A stretch of DNA of 64,000 bases, from IMG/VR virus record IMGVR_UViG_3300044842_000203, positions 1 through 64,000 of that record. One strand, given 5' to 3'. The notes under the pieces were generated by a model. It worked only from the letters and a program-made list of their open reading frames with translations, made no database searches and was not told the DNA's origin. Positions 21,819 to 44,024 of this stretch are shown here, piece after piece. The position numbers and the translations under genes are program-made. This DNA comes from a virus. Lineage: Duplodnaviria > Caudoviricetes. Position 1 is the first letter of the stretch, and each line of letters starts with the position of its first letter.

Positions 21819-22292
21819 TCAGACGAACGTGTAGGCGTTGTTCGCCGTCACGTTGCCGGCATCATCCTGAATGACCACGTTGGTTGCGCCCGCGCTGTGC
21901 GCAGCCGTCGTGCCCGTGATCGTGGTGTCGTTGACCACCCTGAAATTGGTGATCGCGTTACCACCGATAGTCACACCCGAGGCACCATCAAGGTGCGTGC
22001 CCTTGATGGTGACCGGAGTGCCACCCGAGGCGCTGCCACTAGCCGGCGAGATGCTGGCGAACGTGGCAGTCGGGTAGGCGTCGTCAATCTCCGACTTGTT
22101 GATGGTCTGCCCGGCCTTCCACTTGAGCCGGCGCTCCCCGTCGAAGGTCTTGAAATTCGAGCGGAACGGGTCGTAGTTAAACGACTCATACACATCGGTG
22201 TTGATCACCGTCTGGGTGGCGGGCACATCGGTGCAGTAGCCCTGAACGGTGCTCTTGGTCAGCGGATTGCCGTTGGCGTCAACAATGGCCAT
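21819..22292 (-). CDS. IPT/TIG (Ig-like) domain protein, probable capsid decoration
   Basis: SISPASGSASGGTPVTIKG...TTITGTT; directly after capsid gene. Confidence 0.8.
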   Translation of the reverse strand: MAIVDANGNPLTKSTVQGYCTDVPATQTVINTDVYESFNYDPFRSNFKTFDGERRLKWKAGQTINKSEIDDAYPTATFASISPASGSASGGTPVTIKGTHLDGASGVTIGGNAITNFRVVNDTTITGTTAAHSAGATNVVIQDDAGNVTANNAYTFV

Positions 22293-22307
22293 AACTGATC
22301 AGTCCTC

Positions 22308-23657
22308 TCAGGCGCTCGCGGCGGCCAGGTCGACCTTGACCATCGCGGCCGGGCGGTAAACCGCCAAACCGAGCCGCTCTTCCGCCAGCACCACGATCGC
22401 GTTGCGGATGAAGAAGTCGGCGTGCTGGTCGCTGGTCCTGATGTTCGACTGCATGCGGTCAAACACCTGCGCGCCCAAACCGAACGCACCCACCAGTGCA
22501 GTGCCCTCCGGAATAGCCGGGGTGGCGACAACCGGCATCTGCCATAGCCGCTTCTCCGCACCGGAAACCACAGACCCGGCCACCAGGTAGCGGCCTTGGG
22601 TGTCCTTGGTCAACTCCATGCGCTCCCAGTCATACGGGTGCACAACAATGCCCGTGGGGTCGTACTGGGCGAGCATGACGCGAGTCGCGGCACGCCGAAT
22701 GGCGTCAACGTAAGACTCGTTGGTGGGCGGGGTGTAGCTGCCACTGGGGAACAGCTGAATACCGGGGGTGTTGAAGATGCCCAGCAGGTTCTGGCCCGTG
22801 CCGTCACCCAGCAGGATCTGCTCGTCTTCGACGAGCTTGAGGCCGTACATCAGGCGGGTGTCGATGATGCCGCGCAGCTGCGGTTCGTCATCGAGCACGT
22901 TGCGCGATGCCGGCACCCAGTGGGCCAGGGTGCGGATCGGCGTGGTCTTGATGTTGAAGCGAATGTTCGACTTCGGCTTGAGACCGAAGTTGTCATTCGG
23001 TGCAACGCCTTCGCGCTCGGGAACCATCGCGGCGGCGTTGTCGGCGGGGTCGACGAACCCAAGCTCCTCGATGAACTCGATCATCACGGAGCTGGTGTTC
23101 ATCTGCGGGAACAGATCACGCACCCGGTAGTTGATCATCGGGGCGGAAACCATCGGCGCCCGCTGTACAGTGCCGAACCCAGGATGCGTAACGACGCCAA
23201 TGCTGCCGGAATGCACATCCTTGAACTGCACCTGCGACGTCAGCTCCACATCGCTGACCTCAAACGCCTCATCCATGAAACCCGAGGAGCGGTGATTCTT
23301 AAACGCCTCAGACTCCACAAACCGCTGACCCAGCGACTTGTACTCGGCCACCGCAGACGGAACCATCGACTGTCCCGGCGCCAACGCGGCCGGCGTGCCC
23401 GCGGGGGCATCCAGCCACGCATCCAGCTCACTCTTGCGCTCCAGCGCACGAATAACGCCGTAGGTTTCCTCAGCCTTGTCCAGCAGGCCCTTGTACTCGG
23501 TGAAAGCCTCCGGCTTGACGTGCATGTTGCCCTGCTCGTCCAGCCAGCCGGATGCGGCGATCTCATCCAGCTTCGCGTTGATCGACTTGATTTCTGCCCG
23601 GCCGCGCTTAATCAGATCCTTGTCGTCGCGGTCGAGCACGGGGGCGTCAGTTGGCAC
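22308..23657 (-). CDS. Major capsid protein, HK97 fold
   Basis: EDEQILLGDGTGQNLLGI, FIRNAIVVLAEERLGLAVYRPAA; coiled-coil delta domain ending EYKSLG. Confidence 0.95.
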   Translation of the reverse strand: MPTDAPVLDRDDKDLIKRGRAEIKSINAKLDEIAASGWLDEQGNMHVKPEAFTEYKGLLDKAEETYGVIRALERKSELDAWLDAPAGTPAALAPGQSMVPSAVAEYKSLGQRFVESEAFKNHRSSGFMDEAFEVSDVELTSQVQFKDVHSGSIGVVTHPGFGTVQRAPMVSAPMINYRVRDLFPQMNTSSVMIEFIEELGFVDPADNAAAMVPEREGVAPNDNFGLKPKSNIRFNIKTTPIRTLAHWVPASRNVLDDEPQLRGIIDTRLMYGLKLVEDEQILLGDGTGQNLLGIFNTPGIQLFPSGSYTPPTNESYVDAIRRAATRVMLAQYDPTGIVVHPYDWERMELTKDTQGRYLVAGSVVSGAEKRLWQMPVVATPAIPEGTALVGAFGLGAQVFDRMQSNIRTSDQHADFFIRNAIVVLAEERLGLAVYRPAAMVKVDLAAASA

Positions 23658-23799
23658 GCGCCTACTCCCTTGTGCTCAGGTGGGGGAGTGCGGGCAGCTG
23701 ACAGCGAGCCTCACGCACTCCGAGGTCTCGCACCGGTCAGCACCAGGCGCGTGCGCGGAGGCAATCAGATAAACAACCGACCAGGCCAGCGACACGCCG

Positions 23800-24120
23800 C
23801 TACAAAGGCAAACCCTGTATGTGGGGGATTTCGCCCAGCGGCACCGTCAACAGCGGGGCGCGCACCGCGGAACTGCGCCGCACCGGAATACCGCTCACCG
23901 TGGTCTGCGGTATGTACCCCGCACCATCGGGGCCCACCCTCGCCGGAGGCCACTCATCCGGCACCAGCAGTTCGAACAAATGGCCCACGTCCACGATCGG
24001 GATACCAGCGGCGGCCAGCCGCCCGACCGTGCGGTGCACCGCGGGACCCAGCGCATCCCACAACGGATGATTCGGGTGAATCAGCGGCGGAGGCTCATCG
24101 GGCACGTAGTTGACTGCCAT
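23800..24120 (-). CDS. Hypothetical protein
   Basis: ORF in head operon (MAVNYVP...). Confidence 0.5.
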   Translation of the reverse strand: MAVNYVPDEPPPLIHPNHPLWDALGPAVHRTVGRLAAAGIPIVDVGHLFELLVPDEWPPARVGPDGAGYIPQTTVSGIPVRRSSAVRAPLLTVPLGEIPHIQGLPL

Positions 24121-24131
24121 GACCCGGCAAC

Positions 24132-24509
24132 CTACACATCCTCCCCAGCCCACCAACGGCGCCGCAGCTCCGGATCATTCGAAGCCAGCACCCGCCGGGC
24201 CCGCGCCAGCCGACGGGCCTGCTCCTCCGCCGGAATGTCCGGGCGGTGCGGATCACCCAGCATCCAACGGTCCATGTCCGACAGCGTGCCCGCGTGCAGC
24301 GCCATCGCCGCCTCATGCTCACCCTGCTCCTGCTCGCGCGGAGTGCGCCGCCGCAGACCGGCCGCAATGCGGGTGCCGACCGGCTGGCCCCAAAACTCGG
24401 CATTACGCACCACCCGGAACGGGTGAAACGACCACACGGATTTGCCCTCGGCGGCTTGGGCCACCAGCGCCGCGCGCAGCTGGTCGTGCACACCGATCAC
24501 GTCATCCAC
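24132..24509 (-). CDS. Small head-region protein sharing the RVVR..FWG.P.GT.I motif with the giant protein
   Basis: EGKSVWSFHPFRVVRNAEFWGQPVGTRI. Confidence 0.65.
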   Translation of the reverse strand: MDDVIGVHDQLRAALVAQAAEGKSVWSFHPFRVVRNAEFWGQPVGTRIAAGLRRRTPREQEQGEHEAAMALHAGTLSDMDRWMLGDPHRPDIPAEEQARRLARARRVLASNDPELRRRWWAGEDV

Positions 24510-24518
24510 CGCTGCCCC

Positions 24519-27500
24519 CTAGCCCACCGTCGCCGGAACCGGCTGCATCTGCAACGCGGCACCACAGGAGATGCACGCGCGCTGCCCGTTCATTCCATCC
24601 GCCGGGTAGTACATGGTGTTACCGCACGACGGGCACGTGACCGCCTTGAGCAGCTGACCATCGGCGGCCATCACATAGGGCACATCGGCGGCCACCACAT
24701 CCTCGAACGACTCCTCGTCCGCGTCCGGGGCCCCAGACACGGCGGTGTCGGCTTTCAGCTCAGCCTTGAGTTGCGCCGCGCGAGCCAGCAACTCCGCGTC
24801 GAGCAGGGACTTGCCCTCCGATTGTGGCTGCACGAGGTGTCGCTTCCACACGTCCACCACCTGCTGCTTGTCCGCCTTCACCCGCGCCTCGCGTTCCTCC
24901 TGCTGCGCCTTGCGCCGTTTCGAGTTCTCCTCGTACGACAGCGCGTAGTCGTGCTCGTAGGGCACGTACGTTGACCAGCGGCGTTGCAGCGCGGACGCGC
25001 CCTCATCCCAGGGGATGTCCAGGGCCTCCAGGTCGTTGAGCAGGGCTTGCGGGTCATCCACCTGCCCCGCCAGGCCACCGACACGGATGCTGTTGCCGTC
25101 CGCGGTGGTGATGAACTGCGTGCCGTCCGGAGTGGGCACCGCGGCGAGTGTGCCCTTCGGGGACACCACGGCGCCCGGTGATGCGGCCGGGTTGGCGAGC
25201 CGGCGCAGAATATTCCGCTCATCCTTCTGCCAGTTACCCATGCTCGCGGCTGCGCGGCCGGCGGCGGCGCGGGCGTTGGCCAGGGCGGTGGCAGCAGTGT
25301 TCTCCTGCCCATCCTCCCCGGTGGCCACGCCCACTTTCGCCATCTCCTCGGCAACGTGCGCCTGCTCGGTGCGGGCGGCGGCCAGCTCGTCAGCTTTCGC
25401 GAACGGCAGCCCGATGCGGGAGCGCATCTGCTCAGCCTCGGATTCGAGGAAATCGGCGCGGTCCCGCAGCCTCGCTTGGCGGGCCTCGAAACCGTTGAGA
25501 TTGTTGGCCAGGGTGGTGAAGATGCCCGGCCCGAGAGTGGCGATCTGGGTGTCGTTAAGCCGCACCACGGGCCCCAGTTCGTTATCCACACCATCCCAGG
25601 ACAGGTCGATGCCGAACTTCCGGGCACCGGTCTTGTCGTAGTAGGACTGCACCTTGCCCATGAGGTCGTGCCCGCCGAAGGTACCCAGGTAGGTGGGTTC
25701 GGCGCGCCGCCATGAGGGCTGGTTGTAGATGGCGTCACGGATGGCGCCTTTGAGCCCGTCAGCGGCATCGGCGCGGGAAGTGAACTTGTGCCCTCCGGCG
25801 GTGAATGCGAAGTCCTCGCCGGAGGTGGTGTCGGTGCGTTTCGCGATGGCCGCATCGAGGGCGTCGGCGCGGGCCCGGTTGCGCTGCGCGGTTTGGGTGT
25901 AGGTGAGCACGTCGTTGCGCAGGTTGGTTTGCGTGCGGTTGTGCTGGCGCTCCATCCGGGCGAGCTTGGACACCGCGGCGTCGACTTTCGCCTTCTGCAT
26001 GAGCAGCGGGTTGCCGGTGGCCAGGGCTTTCACCTCGGCGTAGGACAGGGCGGTGTCGCCAACGTCTTCCAGTTCGCGCACGTCACCGAGTTTGTTGCGC
26101 ATGATCTGGTCGATGAACTTCTTTTTGCGCTCCAGGGTTTGCCACATGTAGGCGTCGAAGGAGCCTTCGGTGACGTAGCGGTAGATCGCCACGGTGGCGT
26201 TGGTGTTGCCTTGGCGCATGATGCGCCCGTCGCGTTGTTCCACATCGGCGGGCCGCCACGGGGCATCGAGGTGGTGCAGGGCCACGGCGCGGCGCTGCAC
26301 GTTGGTGCCGACACCCATCTTCTCGGTGGACCCGATGAGCACGGCCACTTGACCGTTGCGGGCGGCGGCGAACAACTCCGCCTTTTCGCGGTCGTTTTTC
26401 GCCTCGTGCATGAACCGGATCGACTCACGTTTCATGCCTTTAGCGACCAGGGCGTCGCGCAGCGCGTCGTAGGCGTTCCACCCGTCGGAGGTGGGGGTGC
26501 CCATGTCGGCGAACACGATTTGCATCGAACCGGGCGGTGGGCAGTCGCCCCCGGCGGGGTCGTTGATGTCACAGGGAACGGGACGGTCTTTTGTCTTATC
26601 CCAAATGTCGTAAATCTTGTCAGCGGCGGCCTCAACCTTGCCCGGCTTGTGCTCTTGGCCGACCAGAGCCATGGACAGTGCGGCTTTACGCCCATCGGTG
26701 GAGATTTTCAGCATATTGTCGACTTCGGGTTCCACCGCGCCCGAGCGCACGTCCTCGGCCCGCTCACCCAGCTCGGCAATGTAGGCCGTTAGCTCCGGAG
26801 AGGGGGGCACGATCACGTTTTGCACTGCCCCGGTCTCCAGATTCGGGGTGGGCAGTTTCAGATCATCGGCCATCTTCACATCGGCGAAGATTTGGAACAG
26901 CCGGAGCAGTTCGGGCACGTTGCGGAACTTCGCGAACCGGGTGGTTTGCCGGAACCCGGCACCCTCTGGCTTCAACTCCATTTCATCGACGGTCTGCCCG
27001 AAGGTGGCCGCCCACTGGTCGAACGAGTGGATACCGGCTTCCTCCAGCAGGTCAGGCCGCAGGAAGCGTTGCATGATGTAGGCCTGCGTGACCGTGTTGC
27101 GAATGGGGGTGCCGCTGGCGAAGGTGACCACCCGGCCGCTGGGGTTGTTGGCCCGCAGGTGTTCGATCTTCATGTGCAGGTCTGAGGCCATGTCCGAACC
27201 GGTGGCGCCCGCGCCCTGAATGTTGGATAGGGTGCGCAGGTTCGAATACATGTGCGCCTCGTCCACAAACAGGTAGTCGATACCCGTCTGTTCGAAGGTG
27301 ACACCAGCGTCTTTTTGCTTATCGAGTTTTGCCTTGAGGGCTTCCTCCGCTTTGAGGACGGCCTTCTCCATCTTTTTGATGGTTTTCTGCTGCGCCTGGT
27401 CGCCGAATTGGCCGCCCTCAGCTTTCGCGGCTTCCAGTTGGGCGCGCATCGTGGCGAGTTCCCGATCAATGTAGGACTGCATCGCCTCTTTCGACATGGG

Positions 27501-30500
27501 CACCATGCCCATGGCGTTCTGGGTGAGGATCACGCAATCCCAGTCCCCGGTGGCGGCGCGGGCCACGAACTCCCGGCGCCGATCACCCTTCAAATCGTCC
27601 GTGCCCGCGGCGAGGATCTTCGCATTCGGGTAGATCTGTAAATACTCGCGCTCAAACTGCTCTTTCATGTGGTTGGGAACCACAATGGCGGGCTTCTTAG
27701 CCATGCCGAGGCGCTTGAGTTCGTGCGCGCCCATGGCCATCTCGCCGGTCTTGCCCGCGCCCACCACGTGCGCGAGCAGCGCCGCCGGCTCGGACACGAT
27801 GCGGTTGACCGCGGCGACCTGGTGCGGGCGAGGGGTGAAACCCTCCGCCATGTCGGGGAACACCCGGTCCATGTCGTCGTAGTTGCGCAGCCGCACCGCG
27901 TTGAACTGGTTGTTGTAGTTGCGCAGCAACCGCTGGGCGCGGGTCGAGTCTTCCCACAGCCACTCGGAGAACCGCTCCTGTAGCTCCTCCGCTTTGGCCT
28001 GCGCGGCGGCGGTGGCCTCCAGGTTCGGGTACTGCTTGCCGTCGATCGTGTCGGAAATCTTGATGGAACGCTGCTCCAGCAGGGCCTGCACGATCTCTCC
28101 GGCGGAGATCCGGTCGGTGCCCCACTGCTCGGTGGCTTTGTTGCCCCAGTCGGCGCCGGTCACCGTCCAGATGCCGCCACCGGAGGTGGCGACCTTCACC
28201 GGGTCAGTGTTGCCGTCGTAGATCAGGTCGGCGAGGAATTGGCGCACATCATCGGCGGGGATCCACGCCGCGCCCAGGCGCCCATCCACCTCGTCGACAC
28301 CCAGGTCGGTAGGGATGACGGCCTTGAGCGCATCAACGTTGGCCTGGAAACGCTGGTCGTGTTCGGCGGCGGCCTGTGCGGCGGCGAGTTTGCGGCGCAC
28401 ATTCCCGGACAGGTAGGCGGCGGCGGGTTCGAGTTTGCCGGCGGCCCGCACCGACTCGCCCACCGATTCGAGCGCGGGCGGTTGGCCGTCAAGCCCACCG
28501 AGCGGATCAACATCGGCGGTGTAGTTGCTCCACGCCTGATTCTGCTCAGCCTCCGTCAACGGGGGCTGCTCGAACACCAGCGTGCCCAGCCGTTCGCGGG
28601 CGGTGGACTCATCAGTGCCGAGCATGTCGGCGATGGCCTTGAGATTCACCTCGCCGTAGGTGTCCAGGGACAGGGCGAGCGCATCCTCGGGGGTGTCGGC
28701 TTTGGTGGGGATCTCGCGTGGGGCCACGGCGCGCTTGGTGAAGATGGCGGTCTTCGACCCGGTGCCGGCCTCGGGGTCGTACACCTCCAGGGCGCGCACG
28801 ATCGCTGACATGGGGTCGCGCCTAAAGCCACCCTGACCGGGGGTGACCCGCGAGCCGGTCTTGGACAGGCTGTAGCGGTTGATCGGCCCGTAGCGGGCGA
28901 CGTAGGCGTCGTACTGGTCATTGAGGTCGCGGCGCAGCTGCCGGATCTGCGTCGTGTCGGCGGCGGTGGTGGATTCGGCCTGCAACAGCTCACGCAGGGT
29001 GTCGCGTAGCCCGATCAGGGCGCGCAGCTCCTCGGCCTGTTTGGCGGGCACATCCAGCGGCACCGCGGCACCGCCCACAATCTGGGTGAACCCGCCGTCG
29101 GGGCCGGTGGCGATGTAGCCGTCGTGCGCGTCGGCGGCTTCGGTGATCTGCGCGGTGCCTTCCAGCCGGGGACTGGCGGTGACCCCGCCTGTCTGCGCGG
29201 CGCTAGTGATGCCTTCCAGGGCGTGGTTCAGGTCATCGGGCAGGGTGTCCTGGTCACCCCGCACGATCATGTCGCCGGTGCCGTAGCGGCCCTTTTCGGC
29301 GGTCATTTCGCCGAGCACGTGGTCGGGGTGGTCCAGGAAGTATTGGTTGACGGGAATGTCTTGCCCGCCCAGGTGGGTGACGGGGGCGTTGATCCAGTCT
29401 TGGCTGGTGAGTGGTTCAGCGCCGGGTTCACGGCGCCGGAAAATGAGGATGTCTTCGATGACGCTGGTACCGGCGGTTTTCGAGTGTGAGCCGGTGGGCA
29501 GCCGGACGGCGCCGATCAGGTCACCCATCTCGGCCATGCGCCGCCGGGCGTCGGTGCTCTTGGAGTCCATCGTGTAGCGGGAGGTGAGCAGCGCGCAGAT
29601 ACCGCCCGGTTTGGTGGCCGCCAGGCTCTTGATGATGAAGTGGTTATGGATCGAGAGTTTCCGGCCGGGGTTGTGTACCCGGTCGGTGAGGGCGAAGTCC
29701 CCGAAGGGCACGTTGCCCACCACGGCATCCATCGACCCGGCTGGTAGGCGGGTGTCCGCAAAGGACTCATTGCGGATCGTGGCGCTCGGGTAGAGGGCCT
29801 TGGAGATCGCCGCGGTGGTGGAGTCCAGCTCCACACCCACCATGTCGACGTCGAGGTGGTGCGGCTTGAAACCAATGAACGTGCCCGAGCCGGAGCCTGG
29901 CTCCAAGACCTGCCCACCGTCGAAGCCGAGGTCTTGCACGGCCTTCCAGATGGCGGCTACTGCGTTGGCGTCGGTGTAGTGGGCGTTGAGAGTGTTGCGG
30001 CGGGCCTCCGCCCACTCTTTATCCGAGAGCAGCCCGCGTAGGCGCTCCCGATCGGCGGCGTACTCCGGTTTGGTGTCGTCGAACACCTCCGGCAAACCAC
30101 CCCAGCCGGCCCAGCGGGCCAGTACCCGCTGCTCATCGGGGGTCGCCGGGCGGTGCTCGTTTTGCAGCTGCCGCAAAACTTCGAGGGCGGCGATGTTCGC
30201 GTTGAGTTTCGCCCGCTTCCCGGCGGGGGCGAGGTCATCGGCGTTGACCGGGCGGAAGTCCTCACCCTCCGACGGGATCGCATCAACCTGCCCCCGGTCC
30301 ACGCCGGGCTGCTCGTCGGGCAGATCCGTGGACACCGATGCAGGGGCCTCACCCCCGGCGGCGTCGAGCTGCCCCCGGTCTTCCCGCTCGCCTTCGGTGA
30401 CCGGGTGGTCTACTCCGCCGTCGCGCTGCTCAGGTACTCCGGTTTCGCCGGCAGTGTCGGCTGGCTCGCCCTCGCCGCGTCCCGCTTCTGCTGCGCCAGC

Positions 30501-33500
30501 TCGCTCGCCGCGTCGCTGAACTCGGCCATCGCCTCCGCCAGGTTCACGTCGGTCGCGTCCGGTGTCGGCGGCATCTGCGGATCCGGTGTCGCCTGGTCCG
30601 GGTACCCGTTCGTCTCGGGCCAGTCCGGGGGCAGCAGCGCCAGCAGTGTCTGCCGCATCACCAGTTCCGTCGCCTGCGCCCTCGCCGCGTTCAGCCGCCC
30701 CGCCTTCTCCTCGAACGTCTCGTTCGGCGGGTCGTCCCCCGCCAGGGCTTCGCTCACCTGCTCGATCTCCTGCGCCGCCTGCTCCCCCAGCGTCCCGAAG
30801 AACGTCGCCCTCTCCGTGGGGCTCATCCCGTCGTACGCCTGCGGGAGGTACTGCTGGTACCACTGCTCCGCCAGCGCGGCTAGCGGACTCGTCTGCGCCA
30901 TGGGCATCAGTTTCCCCCTCGTGACGGCGCTGCTGCTCATTGATGATGCCGCGGGCCTTGTTCCACAGTCGCGCCCGCTCGGGGTTGAGTTTCTGCGCCT
31001 GGTCGAGGTGCCCGTGGGCGGTGTCGAACTCGCCGTTGTCGGCGGCGGCGCGGGCGGCGCGCATGTGGTTTTGCGCCTTCGCGGCGGGGGTGTCGCCTTC
31101 GACATCGGGCACGTGGGCGCGGGCGCGCTGCCGGGCGGCCAACTCGTCGGCGATGGCGCCGTTCTTTTCGTCCTCGGTCTTGGGTAGTGGAACCCGCACT
31201 TCGATCTCGTGGTTGTCGCCCCACGAGGTTTTAGTTACGCCCAGGTCTTGCACGGTCATACCGGGCCAGCCCAGCTCGCGAACCGCACCCATGACCTTCT
31301 GTGCGGATTCGTCGCTGTCGGCCCACACTCGGTGAACAGCTACCCCGTCAACAACGCGGGAACCTGCGCCTCCGCCACCACCGGGGATCTTTTGGGCCAC
31401 GCCGTTAAGGGCGTAAGTGCGAGCGCGCGCCGTGCCGGGCAGCTCGGTCTCCGCGCGGGTCTTAGACGGCGCGGGGGTTGAAGCCGAAGACCCAGGAGGT
31501 GAAGGTGTCTCCGCAAGAGATGACCCGGCCTCTGGAGTTTTCGCCACCCGCGCCGCGGGCACCGTAACACCCTCCACGTGCCCGCCGTAGGTCTCGGGGT
31601 CTTCACCCCGGCCGCGCAGCTCCCCATCAATCGCGCCGATCTTGGAGCGGATGCGGTCCCGTTCGATGCGCTTCGCGGCGCGCCGGGCGCGGGCCTGCTC
31701 ATTACGCTTGACCCGCCGACCTTCCCGCAGGTTCCCCGCGGCGGTGAACAGCATGCCCGGTGTGAGCGCCCCGGAGGCGATGGCGGCGTGCACATCACCG
31801 TCACCGAGGGCGCGGCGCACCTGCGTGAACGCCGGGGAATCAGCCGGATGCTTGGCCAGCAGTTTCCCGAACCGATCCGCGGCGGTTTTGATGGCCGCCT
31901 CGTCCCGCTCGGGGGCGTTCAGTAAATCGCCCAGATCTTCCGCGGCGCCGGCTAACCCTGGTCGGGTCGTGGGCGTCTTAGGCTCGGCGGGCGTCCCGGT
32001 GTCCGAGGTGCCCCCCACGCTCGGCTCCGGGGCGCCCGACTTGCTCACCGCGTTCTTAGCGGCTTTATCGCGGCGATCCAGTTCGGTTTGCAACGCCAGT
32101 TCGGCGACCAGATCTTTACGGGCGTCACCGAGCTGCGCGGTCGTTTTGTTGGCGAGCGCGGCGTCGTCCTCGGCGAGCAGGGCCTCCACCCGATCCTGCC
32201 GGTCGGCGACTTCGGGGGTGACGTCTAGTTCCCCGTCGGGGCCTTCGATGAGTCCGTGCTCATCGGGAGTGGCTTCGGGTTCGGGGCCGGGCGCGGGCGC
32301 GGCATGATCGTCGAGAGCCCCGGTGGCGGCGCGCTGGGCGGCCTCGTGCGCGGCGCGCTGCCGCTCGTCGGTGGGTAGACCGGCGGAGGCGTCCATGCTG
32401 CGCTGGGTGGTGGATTGCGCCTGGATGGCGTCGAGACGTTTCTCCACCACATCCGAGGGCAGCACGAGCAGGGTTTGCGCGACGTCGTGCGGGTCCTGAT
32501 CGTCGGGCAGGCCCATGCGGGTGAGGGCGTCGGCGAGGTCATCAACGTTGCCGTCGGCGATGGCGCCTTCGGCGTCGTACCGGGCCTGTGAGGTGTCGAC
32601 GTTGGTGGTGTCGAACGGGGTGAGTGAGGCGAGGATGTCCCGAACGGCCTGCTGGTCTTTGGTTTTGACCGAGGCTTTCGTCCACCGCTTACGTCGAGCG
32701 TTGATGTCACCCCAGGGGATGGGTAGGGCGGCGAGTTTCGCCAGCGCGTCGTCGATCTGCGCGGGGGGGAAGTTGCCGGGGGCGACGGGCATGAGCCCGG
32801 CGTTGGCGGTGTCGACGATCAACCAGTTGCCGTCGGCGCCTTTCACCGCGGCGAACTGCCCATCGGGGGAGGCGTGCACGTCGGCGCCGGGGGTGGCGAA
32901 TTGAGTGAGCATGTTCATGCTCGCGATGGCCGCGTTGCCGACGCCGACCTGTCCGGGGTCGCGGTCTTGTGAGGCGAAGTCCTGGTAGCGCTTGTGCAGC
33001 GCGGCGAGCGCGGCGGCAACCCCTGGTCGCACCGCGGCGGGGGTGGGCGTATGGTCGCCGACCGCGGCAGCCCCGGTAGCCATCGCCTGCTGGCCAGACT
33101 CGGCCGGGGCTGCCGCCACGGCGTGGGCGGCATGACCGATCGCAGGGCCGGTGTCGAGGGTTTCCGCGGCCTCGGCGGGCGCGGTGGTGCGTTCAATGTC
33201 GGCGGCGGTGGCGTGGGATTTGCCGCGGGGGCGCATGCCGGGGCGGATGGGGGTGCCGATGGGCAGACCCCAGAACGTGGAGTCACGGACAACGCGGCGG
33301 CCGAGGCCGTGGAGTGCCTTCACGTCGATGGTCCCCTCGACGGGTGAACTGCCGGAACACCCATCAGGATACCAGTCGTCGGTGTCGTCTTGCTGCGGCC
33401 GAACGTGTTCAGCGAGGGATTTCACCCCCGTTAACGTGGCCAGTGGGTGCGCTCCGTGCAAAACTTGCGACCACTCATAAATGTCGTAATCGTGTAAGTA

Positions 33501-34025
33501 GCGCAGACCGCGGCGTATTTTCGCCCCACCGGGGCGCACCTTGTAACCGATCGAAAAACATTCCTCGGGGCCGTAGAATTTCGCGTCTGAATAAGCATCC
33601 CGGCCGGCTTGCTTATCCATGTTGTACTGGGCTTTGATCAGCAAGCCGCCCGCGGCAGCTGGCCACGGCTTACCATCCGGGGTTTGCTTCGGCAGGCGCG
33701 GGTCGCCGGGCATCAGCTCCTCGGAGTAGACCAGCTTGGAGACCTTCTGCCCCCAGTTGTGATCCGTCACACCCTTGGGCTTCAAGCGTTTCACCGCGGT
33801 ACCCAGGCTGCCGGGCACGATGACGTCGCCCACCTTGTCGGGCACGCCGGAGACAGCGACGATCGCGGTGATCGTGCCTCTGGAGTCGTCGTGACCGATC
33901 ACCCCCGTCAGGGGTGATGACGTCTCCTCGTTCGGCAGCGCCTTCCATTCCAGGCGCCCCGACTCCCCCAAATCGGCCGGAAATTCAATCTCGTCAAGCT
34001 CCAGCCGGGTTTCGGTTGTGGTCAT
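24519..34025 (-). CDS. Giant polyvalent protein: HK97-type prohead protease + DarB-like N6-adenine methylase + SNF2 helicase + Zn ribbon
   Basis: Protease D.VGDVIVPG, DHNW, FSIGY, EWSQV..GA; MTase VLEPGSGSG, GNVPFG; helicase HVVGAGKT, DEAH, SGTP, QRDGRIMRQGN; C-terminal CPSC..CISC. Confidence 0.92.
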   Translation of the reverse strand: MTTTETRLELDEIEFPADLGESGRLEWKALPNEETSSPLTGVIGHDDSRGTITAIVAVSGVPDKVGDVIVPGSLGTAVKRLKPKGVTDHNWGQKVSKLVYSEELMPGDPRLPKQTPDGKPWPAAAGGLLIKAQYNMDKQAGRDAYSDAKFYGPEECFSIGYKVRPGGAKIRRGLRYLHDYDIYEWSQVLHGAHPLATLTGVKSLAEHVRPQQDDTDDWYPDGCSGSSPVEGTIDVKALHGLGRRVVRDSTFWGLPIGTPIRPGMRPRGKSHATAADIERTTAPAEAAETLDTGPAIGHAAHAVAAAPAESGQQAMATGAAAVGDHTPTPAAVRPGVAAALAALHKRYQDFASQDRDPGQVGVGNAAIASMNMLTQFATPGADVHASPDGQFAAVKGADGNWLIVDTANAGLMPVAPGNFPPAQIDDALAKLAALPIPWGDINARRKRWTKASVKTKDQQAVRDILASLTPFDTTNVDTSQARYDAEGAIADGNVDDLADALTRMGLPDDQDPHDVAQTLLVLPSDVVEKRLDAIQAQSTTQRSMDASAGLPTDERQRAAHEAAQRAATGALDDHAAPAPGPEPEATPDEHGLIEGPDGELDVTPEVADRQDRVEALLAEDDAALANKTTAQLGDARKDLVAELALQTELDRRDKAAKNAVSKSGAPEPSVGGTSDTGTPAEPKTPTTRPGLAGAAEDLGDLLNAPERDEAAIKTAADRFGKLLAKHPADSPAFTQVRRALGDGDVHAAIASGALTPGMLFTAAGNLREGRRVKRNEQARARRAAKRIERDRIRSKIGAIDGELRGRGEDPETYGGHVEGVTVPAARVAKTPEAGSSLAETPSPPGSSASTPAPSKTRAETELPGTARARTYALNGVAQKIPGGGGGAGSRVVDGVAVHRVWADSDESAQKVMGAVRELGWPGMTVQDLGVTKTSWGDNHEIEVRVPLPKTEDEKNGAIADELAARQRARAHVPDVEGDTPAAKAQNHMRAARAAADNGEFDTAHGHLDQAQKLNPERARLWNKARGIINEQQRRHEGETDAHGADESASRAGGAVVPAVPPAGVRRDEPHGEGDVLRDAGGAGGAGDRAGERSPGGGRPAERDVRGEGGAAERGEGAGDGTGDAADTAGAAAPGLARDERVPGPGDTGSADAADTGRDRREPGGGDGRVQRRGERAGAAEAGRGEGEPADTAGETGVPEQRDGGVDHPVTEGEREDRGQLDAAGGEAPASVSTDLPDEQPGVDRGQVDAIPSEGEDFRPVNADDLAPAGKRAKLNANIAALEVLRQLQNEHRPATPDEQRVLARWAGWGGLPEVFDDTKPEYAADRERLRGLLSDKEWAEARRNTLNAHYTDANAVAAIWKAVQDLGFDGGQVLEPGSGSGTFIGFKPHHLDVDMVGVELDSTTAAISKALYPSATIRNESFADTRLPAGSMDAVVGNVPFGDFALTDRVHNPGRKLSIHNHFIIKSLAATKPGGICALLTSRYTMDSKSTDARRRMAEMGDLIGAVRLPTGSHSKTAGTSVIEDILIFRRREPGAEPLTSQDWINAPVTHLGGQDIPVNQYFLDHPDHVLGEMTAEKGRYGTGDMIVRGDQDTLPDDLNHALEGITSAAQTGGVTASPRLEGTAQITEAADAHDGYIATGPDGGFTQIVGGAAVPLDVPAKQAEELRALIGLRDTLRELLQAESTTAADTTQIRQLRRDLNDQYDAYVARYGPINRYSLSKTGSRVTPGQGGFRRDPMSAIVRALEVYDPEAGTGSKTAIFTKRAVAPREIPTKADTPEDALALSLDTYGEVNLKAIADMLGTDESTARERLGTLVFEQPPLTEAEQNQAWSNYTADVDPLGGLDGQPPALESVGESVRAAGKLEPAAAYLSGNVRRKLAAAQAAAEHDQRFQANVDALKAVIPTDLGVDEVDGRLGAAWIPADDVRQFLADLIYDGNTDPVKVATSGGGIWTVTGADWGNKATEQWGTDRISAGEIVQALLEQRSIKISDTIDGKQYPNLEATAAAQAKAEELQERFSEWLWEDSTRAQRLLRNYNNQFNAVRLRNYDDMDRVFPDMAEGFTPRPHQVAAVNRIVSEPAALLAHVVGAGKTGEMAMGAHELKRLGMAKKPAIVVPNHMKEQFEREYLQIYPNAKILAAGTDDLKGDRRREFVARAATGDWDCVILTQNAMGMVPMSKEAMQSYIDRELATMRAQLEAAKAEGGQFGDQAQQKTIKKMEKAVLKAEEALKAKLDKQKDAGVTFEQTGIDYLFVDEAHMYSNLRTLSNIQGAGATGSDMASDLHMKIEHLRANNPSGRVVTFASGTPIRNTVTQAYIMQRFLRPDLLEEAGIHSFDQWAATFGQTVDEMELKPEGAGFRQTTRFAKFRNVPELLRLFQIFADVKMADDLKLPTPNLETGAVQNVIVPPSPELTAYIAELGERAEDVRSGAVEPEVDNMLKISTDGRKAALSMALVGQEHKPGKVEAAADKIYDIWDKTKDRPVPCDINDPAGGDCPPPGSMQIVFADMGTPTSDGWNAYDALRDALVAKGMKRESIRFMHEAKNDREKAELFAAARNGQVAVLIGSTEKMGVGTNVQRRAVALHHLDAPWRPADVEQRDGRIMRQGNTNATVAIYRYVTEGSFDAYMWQTLERKKKFIDQIMRNKLGDVRELEDVGDTALSYAEVKALATGNPLLMQKAKVDAAVSKLARMERQHNRTQTNLRNDVLTYTQTAQRNRARADALDAAIAKRTDTTSGEDFAFTAGGHKFTSRADAADGLKGAIRDAIYNQPSWRRAEPTYLGTFGGHDLMGKVQSYYDKTGARKFGIDLSWDGVDNELGPVVRLNDTQIATLGPGIFTTLANNLNGFEARQARLRDRADFLESEAEQMRSRIGLPFAKADELAAARTEQAHVAEEMAKVGVATGEDGQENTAATALANARAAAGRAAASMGNWQKDERNILRRLANPAASPGAVVSPKGTLAAVPTPDGTQFITTADGNSIRVGGLAGQVDDPQALLNDLEALDIPWDEGASALQRRWSTYVPYEHDYALSYEENSKRRKAQQEEREARVKADKQQVVDVWKRHLVQPQSEGKSLLDAELLARAAQLKAELKADTAVSGAPDADEESFEDVVAADVPYVMAADGQLLKAVTCPSCGNTMYYPADGMNGQRACISCGAALQMQPVPATVG
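30410..30907 (-). CDS. TnpV-like protein nested out of frame within the giant gene
   Basis: RBS GAGGGGG before ATG; protein W.QYLP.AY..TFF.TLGEQAAQEIE..LAGDDPP.E.F.EK.GRLN.AR.QA.ELV resembles actinobacterial TnpV-like proteins; host frame here is low-complexity G/R/A. Confidence 0.7.
   Translation of the reverse strand: MPMAQTSPLAALAEQWYQQYLPQAYDGMSPTERATFFGTLGEQAAQEIEQVSEALAGDDPPNETFEEKAGRLNAARAQATELVMRQTLLALLPPDWPETNGYPDQATPDPQMPPTPDATDVNLAEAMAEFSDAASELAQQKRDAARASQPTLPAKPEYLSSATAE
33323..33374 (-). promoter_or_regulatory. Internal early-type promoter + RBS + in-frame GTG inside giant gene
   Basis: TGG-TATCCT-N6-TGTTCCGGC, then GAGGGG 9 nt before GTG (residue 235). Confidence 0.65.
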
Positions 34026-35902
34026 GCACTCACCGACCCCACATCGAAGAGATCAGGCAGCCCACTGCCGCTGTCCTCGCCCGCATCGCCGCCATCTGCA
34101 CTGGCGTCCGGGACGTCGCCACCGGGGCCGGAGTCGGGGATCATGCGCGCGGCCAGCTGGGCGTGGCGGGCGGTGTCGAGCAGCACCCCCGTGCCGTCGT
34201 CGACGTCACCATCTGGCTCGCCGTCGGGCCCGTCGGCCTCGTCACCGAGGTCGGCGATGTAGCCCGCGGTCCACGGCTCATCGAACTGCTGACCCCAGTC
34301 GTCGATACCGTCGAACAGGGCGGCGATCTCTGGGTCGGTGTCGACGGCCATCGCGGCGGCCTTGGTTTCGATGTCTTCGGACCAGTCGAACTTCACGCCG
34401 ATGGTCAGTGGCTTGCCCACGTTGCCCTTGAGGGTGTGCGCGTTTTTGCCGGGCCACTGGCCGGTGGCCATCTTGTGGATGTTCGCGGTGAGGCCGTTGA
34501 GCACCTTCGGGTTGTGCACGAACTTCGCGAGGTGCCGGCGTAGGCGCTTGAAATCGCCCTTGGAGCCGGGGCGCCACTTCTTGCGGCCCTTCGGGTTGAA
34601 GGCCCAGAAGTTGCGCAGTTTCGCAGCTCGCGGATCAGGGGAAGCGACCTTCACCTCAATGCCGTCTTCGAGGGACTTGCCTTCGGTGGTGGCCTGCTCC
34701 AGGGAGCCGATGCGCTGGGTGATGTGGTGGTCGGCGCCGAGCCGCTTCGCGGCGCCTTTGAGCCGGCGCGCGTTGGCTTTGCGCTTCTCCGGGGGCAGCT
34801 TGTGGTGCGCGCCGATCGCGTTGTGCAGGTCTTGGATGGATTGCAGCGCGGGGTCGTCGTCCGGGTCACCGTCGGCACCAACCCGGCGGCCCATGTTGAG
34901 CCCCTTGTGCTCGGACTTGTCGTCGGCGTCCCCATCGTCCTCGCCGCTGCCCAAATCCTGAATCTTGTCGATCATCTCTTGCCCGGCATTGAGCCGGCGG
35001 GCCTCTTTCAACAGCAGGCGCTTGAGCGCATCCCGGTCGCCGGGCTTGGCCCGCCCCCACGACTGGTAGGCGTTGTCGAGGTCACCGAGTGTCTTGATTG
35101 GGTAGGACTTGGTGCCTTTGAGGGTGTGCCCCTGTTTTGCGAGCTTTTCGCGCTCATCGGTGGAGATGTCGCGTTTCACTTCGAGGGCGCGTTCGCGCAT
35201 CGACGCCGCCCACATCAGGCCGATCTCACCGCAGTTGGCGCCCACCCAGTCGACGCCGCGCGTGTTAAGGGCTTTGCCTTCAGCGACGATCCGGGCGACG
35301 GGGCCGGGCAGGATCGCGGCCACCTCGATGATCTCGGCCGGCGGGGTGAAGGTGATCTCGCCGGATTTCGTTTCAGTGATCACGGGTGCCTCCGCATCGC
35401 CGAGGGGAACGTCGAGCACGTCGCCGGCCAGGGCGAGGCGCAGTGTGGAGAACCGCACCGGGCCGGTGAAGGTGAGCTGATCAGGGTTCAGGCCATAGCC
35501 CGCAGTCACGTGAAAGATCACGGGATCATGCTGCGCGGGCGGGGTCGGGTAGTCGTCGTGCGTAGTGGTCACCCACTGTGCCCACTTGCGTAGCGGGTTG
35601 AGCGCGGGGGAGTCACCCACCAGGTAGACGGCGCAGGGCTGCGGCCCGTCGTCGCTATCGCCCCCGTCGGGGTTGAAGATGGCGTGGCCCATGATGCGGG
35701 CATCCACCGGGTCGAACGCGGGCGCCGATGCGGTGACCAGTTCGCGCAGCCGGGCGGACTGCTCGGGCGCCCAGTCGGCCACGTTGTCGCCGAGGTAGAG
35801 CAGGGTGAGGTGCATCTGCTCCGGCGGGTCGCCCCCATCGACGGCCAGCTGGCCGGCGTTGTCGGGGACCAGGCCGAGGAATCCGCCCGTGTATTCAGTC
35901 AC
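34022..35902 (-). CDS. Multidomain head protein: 2H phosphoesterase (Acb1/LigT-like) + small helical domains
   Basis: Two HxT motifs (MHLTL, FHVTA); YPIKTLGDLDNA..GRA domain plus a degenerate copy; KLRNFW..GDF.R..H...TGQWPG domain. Confidence 0.8.
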   Translation of the reverse strand: MTEYTGGFLGLVPDNAGQLAVDGGDPPEQMHLTLLYLGDNVADWAPEQSARLRELVTASAPAFDPVDARIMGHAIFNPDGGDSDDGPQPCAVYLVGDSPALNPLRKWAQWVTTTHDDYPTPPAQHDPVIFHVTAGYGLNPDQLTFTGPVRFSTLRLALAGDVLDVPLGDAEAPVITETKSGEITFTPPAEIIEVAAILPGPVARIVAEGKALNTRGVDWVGANCGEIGLMWAASMRERALEVKRDISTDEREKLAKQGHTLKGTKSYPIKTLGDLDNAYQSWGRAKPGDRDALKRLLLKEARRLNAGQEMIDKIQDLGSGEDDGDADDKSEHKGLNMGRRVGADGDPDDDPALQSIQDLHNAIGAHHKLPPEKRKANARRLKGAAKRLGADHHITQRIGSLEQATTEGKSLEDGIEVKVASPDPRAAKLRNFWAFNPKGRKKWRPGSKGDFKRLRRHLAKFVHNPKVLNGLTANIHKMATGQWPGKNAHTLKGNVGKPLTIGVKFDWSEDIETKAAAMAVDTDPEIAALFDGIDDWGQQFDEPWTAGYIADLGDEADGPDGEPDGDVDDGTGVLLDTARHAQLAARMIPDSGPGGDVPDASADGGDAGEDSGSGLPDLFDVGSVSA

Positions 35903-36164
35903 AGGGCTTCGCCCCAGCGTGCGGGAGGTGCCAGGTGCCGCCGGTCATCTGCTGGTCGTAGGCGCAGTCGTCGAAGAACACCCCGGATGGGTTGATGACG
36001 AACAGGGACAGCAGGTTATTGCTGAGCACGCCAGAGACCAGCGCGGCGCGGCAGCGCGGCTGGTATATCTGTGTGCCGTCGATGCCTACCGGGCTGCCGT
36101 GAGAGCGGTAGTGCACCCGGTCCCCGAGATCAACGGCAGGACCATCACCGGACGTGATGAGCAT
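35895..36164 (-). CDS. Conserved small phage protein (leaderless)
   Basis: GDRVHY..G....CRAALV...L.VINPSG.FF...GGTWH.P; ATG 7 nt after late -10. Confidence 0.7.
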   Translation of the reverse strand: MLITSGDGPAVDLGDRVHYRSHGSPVGIDGTQIYQPRCRAALVSGVLSNNLLSLFVINPSGVFFDDCAYDQQMTGGTWHLPHAGAKPCD

Positions 36165-36385
36165 GTCGCGCATGGTGTCAGGCGAGCAGGTTGAGCCGCT
36201 GGTGGGCGCGCCGCGAGCGATAGAAACCGCGGGAGCTGCCTGCTACACTCGACAGCGTTGGTCCATGGGTATCGACTGCGCGGGGTTTGAGGCTTGCCTC
36301 CCCCGGTAGCCACTCCTCGGACTGGCCGGAACCGGAGCAGCCCTCCCAGCAATGGGGGGGCTGTTCGCGTTATCCGGTTAATTAC

Positions 36386-36781
36386 TCAGCGCATCGCGGC
36401 GCGGCAATGTGAGCACACGCCGTAGGCGATGGTGACCCGATCCAAGGTGATTTCTCCCATGTGCAGCTCATCATCGGTGCGCTTGCAAGCGTCGCAGCGA
36501 AAATTCTCGGGATCCGACGCGGGCAGCATGCCCAGGTGCGCACAGCCGGGGCAGGTGACCAGGCGCGGATTCCAGGCCACCATGCGCACCGGGATGTTGC
36601 TGCGGAAAGTGGGGTTGTGGGGGCAGGAGTCGAACTGACCGGACTGCCACATCGTCATGCGGTTGGTGAACAGGGCAGTCAGCCACTCGGGCACGTCTGC
36701 CCACCGGATGGGCTGCCCCTGAATGCGGGGGCCTTCGAGTTGGCGATTGCGGTGATGTTTGTTGCCGCGAGTGCGGGTCAT
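36386..36781 (-). CDS. Cys-rich (Zn-binding) hypothetical protein
   Basis: CPH, CxxC, CDAC, CxxC. Confidence 0.6.
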   Translation of the reverse strand: MTRTRGNKHHRNRQLEGPRIQGQPIRWADVPEWLTALFTNRMTMWQSGQFDSCPHNPTFRSNIPVRMVAWNPRLVTCPGCAHLGMLPASDPENFRCDACKRTDDELHMGEITLDRVTIAYGVCSHCRAAMR

Positions 36782-39468: not shown

Positions 39469-40833
39469 CTATGCCCCCACCAGCGCGGGCGCCGGAACCT
39501 CCGCCGGCATCACCGGCATCGCCACAATCAACCCCTCCGTCACTGACGCCACCGCCAGCGACGCGCCAGCCGGCAACACCACCGCACCCCCGGCCAAACC
39601 CACCACCGTGCCCGCCGGGATCGACACCGCCAACACCGCCGTCGACACCGCCGCAGACGATGCCAACGCCAGAGTGAGGGTGCGCGGCCACGAGATCCGC
39701 TGCCCCGGCGTCACCGGGGGCATCTCATCCAACGTGCGGTAAGCCACCACATCAGCGGGCACACGCACCGCCGGAACCGACGGGCCACCAATCACCGGGT
39801 CATCATTCGACGTCTCACCCACCGCCGGGGCCGCCAGCAGGGCTCGTGCCGCATCCGGTGTGCCCGAGTCCGCCAGCGTCGTCGCATGCTCGATACCGGC
39901 CAGCGGTTTCGCGAACAACAGCCCGCAGCGGCACCCGGCCACCTCGCCGATGCCCTCGGGGAGCACGGACGGATCACCGGGGAACCGCAGCCGGAACGCA
40001 CCCACTTGATACGGCTGGCCTATTGGCCGCTCCTGCCCGTCGGCGATGCGATGCGTCGGCCGCACCCGGTCATCCCGGCGGGAAATCCACTGCATGTGCG
40101 TCACACCCATGGCCTTCGCTGCCGCGAGCGCCGCATCCCCCGCCAGCGCGGTCGCCAGCGTCCGCCCGTACATCAGATTCCAGTTACCACCACGCCGCAC
40201 CGCCGCCAACACCTGGTCAATCACGTGGTCGAGGTCTTCGGCGGTGGAGTTGGCTTCCATGATGACGGCGCGCACCATCTGCGCCTGCCGGCGTGAGCAC
40301 GCGAGCATCTGCTGGACCGCGGAATCTACTGCCTGCTCGACAGTCGCCCAGTCGAACGCAGCCAGGCCCACATTGGGTCGCCCGAGGGACTGGGCGACAT
40401 GGGAAGCGGCGTCGGCGACGATGCGCAGTCCCACCGGCCGCACCGCGTCAGCGATCTCATCGACCGTCCTATCGGGGAGGATGTAGTCGCCGTCGAGGGC
40501 CTTGGTTTCAGTCCGGTTGTATGTCCTAACAGAGTCATCCACCCTCACCCCAGATACAGACTTCACCTGTTCGGACCAAAAGCGGGTGCCTTTGCGAGCC
40601 CGCGGGCCCCGCAACCGGGCCTCAACCACCCCGGCGAGGCGATCGTTATACGCCGACACCGCCGCATCCATCGCGGCCACCGCCCGGTCCACCCGCGCCG
40701 CCGCATCATCGGCCAGCGCATCCCGGATCGGTCCCTGCGGCGGATCGGGGGGCGCCTCGTGCACCATGACCTGCGTCAGCGGCAAATCCGCCAGGTCATC
40801 GGCGGTAAGCAAATCGCGCGCCGCGCTGCTCAC
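39469..40833 (-). CDS. MuF/SPP1 gp7-like minor head protein with C-terminal extension
   Basis: WISRRDDRVRPTH..ADGQ..FPGDP..GCRC. Confidence 0.9.
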   Translation of the reverse strand: MSSAARDLLTADDLADLPLTQVMVHEAPPDPPQGPIRDALADDAAARVDRAVAAMDAAVSAYNDRLAGVVEARLRGPRARKGTRFWSEQVKSVSGVRVDDSVRTYNRTETKALDGDYILPDRTVDEIADAVRPVGLRIVADAASHVAQSLGRPNVGLAAFDWATVEQAVDSAVQQMLACSRRQAQMVRAVIMEANSTAEDLDHVIDQVLAAVRRGGNWNLMYGRTLATALAGDAALAAAKAMGVTHMQWISRRDDRVRPTHRIADGQERPIGQPYQVGAFRLRFPGDPSVLPEGIGEVAGCRCGLLFAKPLAGIEHATTLADSGTPDAARALLAAPAVGETSNDDPVIGGPSVPAVRVPADVVAYRTLDEMPPVTPGQRISWPRTLTLALASSAAVSTAVLAVSIPAGTVVGLAGGAVVLPAGASLAVASVTEGLIVAMPVMPAEVPAPALVGA

Positions 40834-43957: not shown

Positions 43958-44024
43958 GATGACTCCTCAAGAGAACTTGCCGGAACATGTGCAAGCATAC
44001 CACGGACCCCGTTGGGGGCAAGGG

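Follow-up and report, generated by a model that had tools for sequence, protein, structure and literature searches.

The site considered here lies within a giant open reading frame (ORF) on the minus strand of a 64,000-nucleotide (nt) stretch of viral DNA, hereafter the window, which comprises the first 64 kb of IMG/VR record IMGVR_UViG_3300044842_000203 (111,566 bp in a single record, 65% G+C, 92% complete). The source is an uncultured soil phage of ~111 kb with a contractile tail, and the giant gene, which sits in the head module of this phage, encodes a head maturation protease fused to a DarB-like methylase/helicase cargo (Table 1). The protease domain is 46% identical to the capsid maturation protease of Gordonia phage Hanem, and its nearest cultured relatives are Gordonia phages of the genus Bendigovirus, in which the protease gene has 454 codons and stands immediately before the capsid gene; residues 1-235 of the window protein have no Pfam match, PF04586 being present in some distant homologues. 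Cargo residues ~1260-2900 match DarB-like anti-restriction, methyltransferase and SNF2/ResIII helicase families (phrog_10089, DarB-like, E = 0; phrog_11801, 6.5e-189; ResIII; Helicase_C), and an adenine methylase module and a SNF2/ResIII helicase module are thereby joined in one very large protein. The junction between protease and cargo is real, as profile matches to the one and to the other lie on either side of it. The linker at this junction carries what appears to be a complete copy of the phage's own promoter, followed by a candidate ribosome-binding site and an in-frame start codon, from which a protease-free form of the cargo may be made.

A promoter-like site in the protease/cargo linker

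On the minus strand, positions 33352-33374 read TGGTATCCT-GATGGG-TGTTCCGG, with zero mismatches to the promoter family of this phage. Followed from 33374 to 33351, the strand carries TGG-TATCCT, then GATGGG, then TGTTCCGG and a single C; the Shine-Dalgarno (SD)-like GAGGGG comes 12 nt later, and after a further 9 nt there is a GTG in the frame of the giant gene. The earlier note that drew attention to this locus had described exactly this succession (a -10 element, 6 nt, a box, GAGGGG, 9 nt and an in-frame GTG at codon 235), and its description is accurate on re-reading. Transcription is predicted to start within the box, a position derived from the usual 7-nt distance to the -10 element. Counted from the box, GAGGGG lies 13 nt downstream and the GTG 35 nt past the G of the box, an SD and a start codon some 20-35 nt past the box on the same strand being usual for the family. 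The site lies 651 nt into the 9,507-nt ORF and is thus not intergenic.

The promoter family itself has a fixed architecture, in which an extended -10 element is separated by exactly 6 nt from the box YGTTCCGG, which is followed by C or T. The first part (TGn joined to TAnnnT) is the textbook form of an extended -10 element; no -35 element is visible in the family, and the box begins 7 nt after the -10. With two mismatches or fewer, TGGTAnnnT-N6-TGTTCCGG occurs 10 times in the window against 0.21 expected, and when Y is permitted at the first base of the box there are ~20 copies in the 111.6-kb genome. The tally for the window is 9 other full copies, 2 leaders that have the box without the -10, and 2 weaker variants, which makes the "ten" similar promoters of the earlier note about right. 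Scored over the whole genome with a weight matrix built without it (leave-one-out), the internal copy reaches 29.4 bits, compared with 23-37.6 bits for the 19 other members and 17.8 for the best background site, and the number of exact copies expected by chance, as estimated from base composition, is ~0.001 per genome. It is the only member of the family deep inside a gene; each of the others is intergenic or at the end of a gene and faces the gene that follows, and for nearly all of them GAGGAG or GGAGA and a start codon can be seen within ~10-30 nt downstream. The genes so preceded include small genes of unknown function and a plus-strand gene block beyond 80 kb, and, in addition, the operons of the head (43980) and of the tail side (18863). 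No promoter class besides this one was identified in the genome, and scanning 22000-36500 for generic sigma-70 promoters and terminators added no information. The internal site therefore resembles the intergenic copies in all specified bases, in spacing, in the C after the box and in having SD and start within ~35 nt, and it differs from them in lying inside a long ORF, in having GAGGGG rather than GAGGAG or GGAGA as its SD, and in a -10 element slightly off the consensus.

Conservation at the level of DNA

A database search with residues 1-420 returned 45 giant fusions of 2,000-4,600 amino acids (aa) that start with the same protease domain, and IMG/VR supplied DNA relatives with 64-83% protein identity to the window (L001/L007, L002, L013, L003, L004 and L006). 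Seven DNA sequences were thus available for comparison (the window, L007, L002, L013, L003, L004 and L006; L005 reads the same as L004 at the site), and comparisons over six lineages leave out L004, which is too close to L003. The motif TGG-TAy-nnT-N6-YGT-TCC-GGy is present with zero mismatches, and at the same position of the linker, in all seven. Conservation of the motif in related phages was the test that the earlier note had set for itself, and the motif is indeed retained, with rare synonymous codons. In translation (TGG-TAy-nnn-nnn-nnn-YGT-TCC-GGn) it corresponds to W-Y-x3-[R/C]-S-G, which is found at fixed spacing in the 17 closest protein homologues (17/17), all with DarB-type cargo; the x residues vary, and the flanks of the linker have undergone in-frame insertions and deletions (indels).

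It is the choice of codons that bears on what is being conserved. The third codon of the motif ends in T throughout (CCT, GCT and, five times, GAT), the Arg codon at the box is always CGT in the DNA relatives (7-17% of Arg codons in these genes), and the Ser codon is always TCC. In the window, Cys (TGT) stands where the relatives have Arg (CGT), a radical change in the protein that still falls within the Y of the motif. Computed from each lineage's own amino acids and codon usage, the chance of codons that match the motif is 0.003-0.015 per lineage and ~1e-8 over four clearly independent lineages. Common descent explains little of this, because synonymous sites are near saturation: between lineages, conserved residues have the same codon at a frequency of 0.48-0.65, where codon bias alone predicts 0.45. 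Among 747 aligned codon columns, three end in T in all six lineages, and two of these are codon 220, which supplies the last T of the -10, and codon 223, the YGT of the box. The third is codon 682 (31980-31982; CCT/GAT), situated in a variable Pro/Gly-rich linker before R-P-G-x-A-G-A-A-E-D-L-G-D, where no promoter-like motif is recognisable. A conserved AAA in G-V-K-S-L upstream was likewise considered as a DNA signal and was dropped, AAA accounting for 20-46% of Lys codons. The rare codons, the T-ending columns and the exchange of TGT and CGT between lineages therefore point to selection on DNA or RNA and not on the peptide. The same promoter family is in use in the relatives, as judged from up to 20 copies per 120 kb of their genomes compared with 0-1 for a reversed-pattern control. 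Other searches added little: a distant blastn of the junction region against the phage collection gave no match, two scans of genome contigs found no relative, and a scan of metagenomes gave one weak, unrelated match (L009); fragments of the distant-fusion clade (L010-L012) carry no family promoter, but these are only 5-24% complete and hence uninformative.

The translation signals show a similar pattern. GAGGGG is kept in all seven DNA sequences although GGG makes up 15-29% of Gly codons, and the distance from box to GAGGGG is 7-13 nt in the relatives (4-16 nt in the intergenic copies). The -10, the box and the SD are thus all under selection at the level of DNA. In 6 of the 7 sequences an in-frame GTG or TTG follows 6-12 nt past the SD, at differing codons: GTG at +9 in the window and L007, GTG at +6 in L003 and L004, TTG at +8 in L013, and GTG at +12 in L006. 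Three homologues available as protein only (P0014, P0015 and P0017) have Met two codons past E-G. Turnover of the start position with retention of the SD-start pair is what an initiation site in use would predict. The linker indels all preserve the frame, being multiples of three, and stops are absent from every lineage, which argues that the fusion frame is read through as well; as the SD-start pair is kept and the fusion frame is open, both products would be expected.

The putative cleavage site and the adjoining tag

The candidate start codon coincides with a putative protease cleavage site, I-D-V-K/A-L. The earlier note had read DVK/AL as such a site, and this fits a recurrent E-x-K/[A/S]-L, which is found again in the 2H and MuF proteins and, as EYK/SL (~residue 107), in the capsid protein, there at the point where HK97 loses its delta domain. 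In the major capsid protein, a charged N-terminal region of ~107 residues ends in AEYK/SL and resembles the HK97 delta domain with its cut point; given this delta-like region, a separate scaffolding gene may perhaps not be needed. Directly past the cleavage site of the giant protein stands a conserved tag, whose consensus across homologues is R-x-V-R-D-x-x-[F/Y]-W-G-x-P-x-[G/N]-T-x-I-x-P-G-M-K-P. The module of cleavage site plus tag occurs in many other proteins of 375-1,800 aa (P0047-P0063, from a profile-free search), in some 30-45 residues from the N-terminus and in others deep inside, and it looks like a portable tag of head-associated polyproteins. It is also present in a 125-aa ORF next to the giant gene, which has EGK/SV followed by the tag RVVRNAEFWGQPVGTRI. 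Together with a 106-aa ORF (23800-24120, minus strand), this ORF occupies the interval from the giant gene to the capsid gene, where a crude gene call based on GC3 wrongly favoured a plus-strand ORF (23821-24426).

The predicted short isoform begins one residue before IDVK/AL and retains the tag, and as such it would be essentially the mature cargo with its tag. Because the tag is retained, the short isoform could be packaged too, and need not be solely cytoplasmic; whether it would be packaged or cytoplasmic, and when it would be made, are matters on which the odds are roughly even.

Genomic surroundings

The giant gene is placed between the portal and MuF-like genes (39469-42532) and the major capsid gene, within a recognisable head module, and the gene just upstream of it encodes a 626-aa protein that weakly matches the 2H phosphoesterase (2'-5' RNA ligase) superfamily. 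Adaptor, sheath and tape measure genes are also found downstream. Within the giant protein, residues ~385-455 and ~2950-3020 contain a similar segment (…DGQ/DGT…W/F…DTAN/TADG…IPW…RRxRW) that was noticed by eye in the translation and that, lying near both ends of the cargo, looks like a duplicated small domain. Upstream of gene 35895-36173, a leader copy with the box alone (36326-36348, minus strand; …GGTTCCGG, 15.4 bits) is the exact reverse complement of the CCGGAAC stretch of a candidate plus-strand small RNA (36221-36372), and this "mirror" stretch may partly reflect overlap with a real minus-strand leader. Farther away, a 721-aa protein (49002-51167), on which the earlier note had founded its mention of TraB-mediated transfer, has no Pfam match (E<0.01), while the GntR regulator beside it is clear; 7-9 tandem 12-nt units, CGTGACTnnnnn (50672-50787, plus strand), stand at the 3' end of the ORF for the 721-aa protein.

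Table 1. Features of the giant gene, its internal site and its neighbours (positions in the window)
Feature	Position	Strand	Remarks
Giant ORF	24519..34025	-	3,168 codons; head maturation protease fused to DarB-like methylase/helicase cargo
Protease domain	33390..33899	-	residues 43-212; phrog_80, E=4e-14
Extended -10 element TGG-TATCCT	33366..33374	-	codons W218-Y219-P220
Start-site box TGTTCCGG	33352..33359	-	codons C223-S224-G225; predicted transcription start 33359/33358
Shine-Dalgarno-like GAGGGG	33333..33338	-	codons E230-G231
In-frame GTG, candidate start of nested product	33321..33323	-	codon 235 of 3,168; context T-I-D-V-K-A-L
Predicted nested ORF, protease-free cargo isoform	24519..33323	-	2,934 aa; predicted from promoter, SD and start
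Putative protease cleavage site I-D-V-K/A-L	33312..33329	-	[hydrophobic]-E/D-x-K at 233-236, conserved in 45/45 homologues
Conserved tag R-R-V-V-R-D-x-x-F-W-G-L-P-I-G-T-P-I-x-P-G-M-x-P-R-G	33222..33299	-	directly past cleavage site; 45/45 homologues
125-aa ORF with cleavage site and tag	24132..24509	-	same module as giant protein
Major capsid protein gene	22308-23657	-	downstream of giant gene
626-aa protein	34022-35902		upstream of giant gene; weak 2H phosphoesterase match
MuF-like gene	39469-40833		upstream of giant gene
Portal	40796-42532		upstream of giant gene

Discussion

The present data allow a model in which the linker codons have a second role, encoding an internal promoter, a ribosome-binding site and a start as well as peptide, and in which a protease-free cargo isoform of 2,934 aa is made besides the fusion; on balance we hold this model to be probable. 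It proposes that the linker is a working copy of the phage's standard start, consisting of an extended -10 without a -35, the YGTTCCGG box, GAGGGG and an in-frame GTG. Transcription arriving from upstream would give rise to the full 3,168-aa fusion, which the protease would cut at IDVK/AL, and transcription from ~33358 would give rise to an mRNA on which codon 235 opens the first ORF, in the frame of the fusion, and so to the 2,934-aa cargo. With two such routes the dose of cargo would be independent of the dose of protease, much like in the nested protease/scaffold genes of herpesviruses, and the transcript from ~33358 would in addition supply RNA polymerase and ribosomes to the 9-kb gene and to the capsid gene that follows. 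That the cargo is also made by a second route, free of the protease, is likely, because promoter, ribosome-binding site and in-frame start are all under DNA-level selection in the relatives; this part of the two-route proposal of the earlier note holds by comparison, and what was said there of timing is unsupported. Transcription from the site, internal initiation and the existence of the isoform are what we infer from these comparisons of sequence.

Several observations weigh against the model. More distant fusions of protease and cargo are without the insert, and these include two with DarB-type cargo (P0018 and P0022). The latter have no W-Y…R-S-G, but I-E-G-A-E-V-K at the junction, which could still encode an SD (GAGGG) and a GTG, and their phages may use another promoter consensus. 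The internal -10 itself, TATCCT, has C where 16 of the 19 other members have G, and the copy ranks near the bottom of the family. In L002 the codon at +8 past the SD is CTG, a non-standard start, and some of the Val codons might be accounted for at the protein level, by the hydrophobic residue that the cleavage site has at P4 or P2. Finally, most leaders of the family match the candidate antisense RNA (36221-36372) better than shuffled sequence does, whereas the leader of the internal copy, past its box, does not; this comparison of duplex energies is a crude measure and deserves little weight.

The alternative that survives best is a booster promoter, which would restart transcription in the 12-kb stretch without intergenic space (36173 to 24519) on behalf of the capsid gene and later genes. 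The SD and in-frame start would then merely keep the RNA translated, and so safe from Rho-dependent termination, with the short protein as a by-product. Family promoters do punctuate the minus-strand head/tail region at 43980, 33352 and 18863, none lies between the giant gene and the capsid gene, and within coding DNA a promoter is best tolerated in a variable linker. However, 8.8 kb separate the site from the capsid gene downstream, and it is found where the giant gene begins and not towards its end; in every lineage its place is the domain junction itself, immediately ahead of the cleavage site; and relatives with other cargo of similar length lack it. We regard a mere booster as unlikely, if the least unlikely of the alternatives. 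Slightly less likely still is a more elaborate scheme for the actinobacterial-myovirus clade, by which doubly coding linker codons place the one 9.5-kb gene under two programmes: the late, protease-tethered fusion is packaged and injected, and the promoter-driven, protease-free copy acts in the cytoplasm, where it would modify or guard replicating DNA. If this were so, one anti-restriction enzyme would cover both the incoming and the newly made genome.

Somewhat less credit can be given to an early or lysogenic promoter, as the earlier note had it, which would produce an unpackaged, cytoplasmic methylase/helicase to protect replicating or conjugating DNA and leave packaging to the late fusion. 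It is consistent with this that most family promoters stand before small genes without a known function or before the plus-strand block beyond 80 kb, that the short form is without the protease domain, which could take the fusion into the prohead, and that free-standing tag proteins have a leader of 30-45 residues before the cleavage site, which the short form does not. However, the name "early-type" was an assumption, and with the head and tail-side operons (43980 and 18863) preceded by the same family the class is not demonstrably early. Expression in the lysogen is unsupported, as no tyrosine or serine recombinase was found when an integrase was sought in the 92%-complete genome, and TraB is not confirmed; the short form, moreover, keeps the tag common to other head-associated proteins.

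It is rather improbable that the signal acts in RNA only, with a phage factor engaging the box and GAGGGG in the full-length late mRNA so as to pause, cleave or re-initiate, and with no start of transcription at the site. Such a factor might be whatever reads the box, or else the candidate antisense RNA (36221-36372), which carries CCGGAAC and CUCCUC, and the box is found also in leaders without a recognisable -10, at 55607 and 58413. However, an RNA signal has no need of an extended -10, and TGG-TA...T is conserved here at fixed spacing down to its silent last T, while the complementarity of the internal leader to the candidate antisense RNA is no better than that of shuffled controls. A protein-level motif (W-Y-x3-R-S-G and E-G being kept for protease docking, for example), the fossil of an old gene fusion, and chance are together very improbable and largely refuted by the codon analysis: the residues of W-Y-x3-R-S-G are invariant in 17 proteins and adjoin the cleavage site, but a protein motif explains neither the rare synonymous codons in every lineage, nor an Arg-to-Cys change that preserves the DNA motif, nor the exact match to a promoter family used ~20 times per genome, a fossil would have decayed at saturated synonymous sites, and chance predicts ~0.001 copies per genome.

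If the linker does hold an internal promoter and start, its closest analogue would be the UL26/UL26.5 arrangement of herpesviruses. In HSV (UL26/UL26.5), HCMV (UL80/UL80.5) and OsHV-1, a shorter transcript that arises inside the protease gene encodes the in-frame C-terminal part of the protein, and the probable role of this nested transcript is to fix the proportion of one product to the other (PMC9732275; PMC11565193). As in the herpesviruses, a capsid maturation protease comes first in the protein encoded by the phage gene, followed by a cleavage site and then a long C-terminal part, and both viruses belong to the HK97-fold lineage. However, the C-terminal part in the phage is a DarB-like methylase/helicase of ~2,900 aa and not a scaffold, the capsid protein having its own delta domain, and the phage promoter, as predicted from the sequence, is bacterial in type and lies in translated linker codons. 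Among phages, lambda C/Nu3, Mu I/Z and P2 gpO have an in-frame internal start past the head protease domain, which yields a protease-free product that shares the C-terminus; there, a single mRNA is translated from two starts, the short product serves as scaffold, and we know of no dedicated internal promoter that has been described for them. As to the cargo, DarB of phage P1 is a 250 kDa protein present in ~40 copies per virion, with an N-terminal targeting signal of 30 residues, and defends incoming DNA against restriction (PMC9024508), and polyvalent DarB-like proteins in phage head modules are already known from a paper that mentions "prohead" once and "internal promoter" not at all (PMC5512222). 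Like P1 DarB, the cargo is a very large methylase and SNF2/ResIII helicase protein encoded among head genes, the likeness in sequence being limited to the enzyme core (phrog_10089). Unlike the fusion, P1 DarB is the product of a separate gene that is not joined to a prohead protease, and neither a nested product nor an internal promoter has been described for it.

The model makes a sharp prediction, namely an RNA 5' end at ~33358 and a protein N-terminus at codon 235. If the internal start is used, it would be, to our knowledge, the first phage counterpart of the herpesvirus arrangement in which the nested product has its own promoter, and a shared logic of expression would extend across the HK97-fold virus lineage. 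It would also offer a clear case in which translated codons have kept a full promoter, a ribosome-binding site and a start codon through long divergence, one that is missed entirely by gene callers that report a single giant ORF. For the phages themselves, it would provide a handle on the dosage of a very large anti-defence cargo in relation to the protease by which it is carried or cut.

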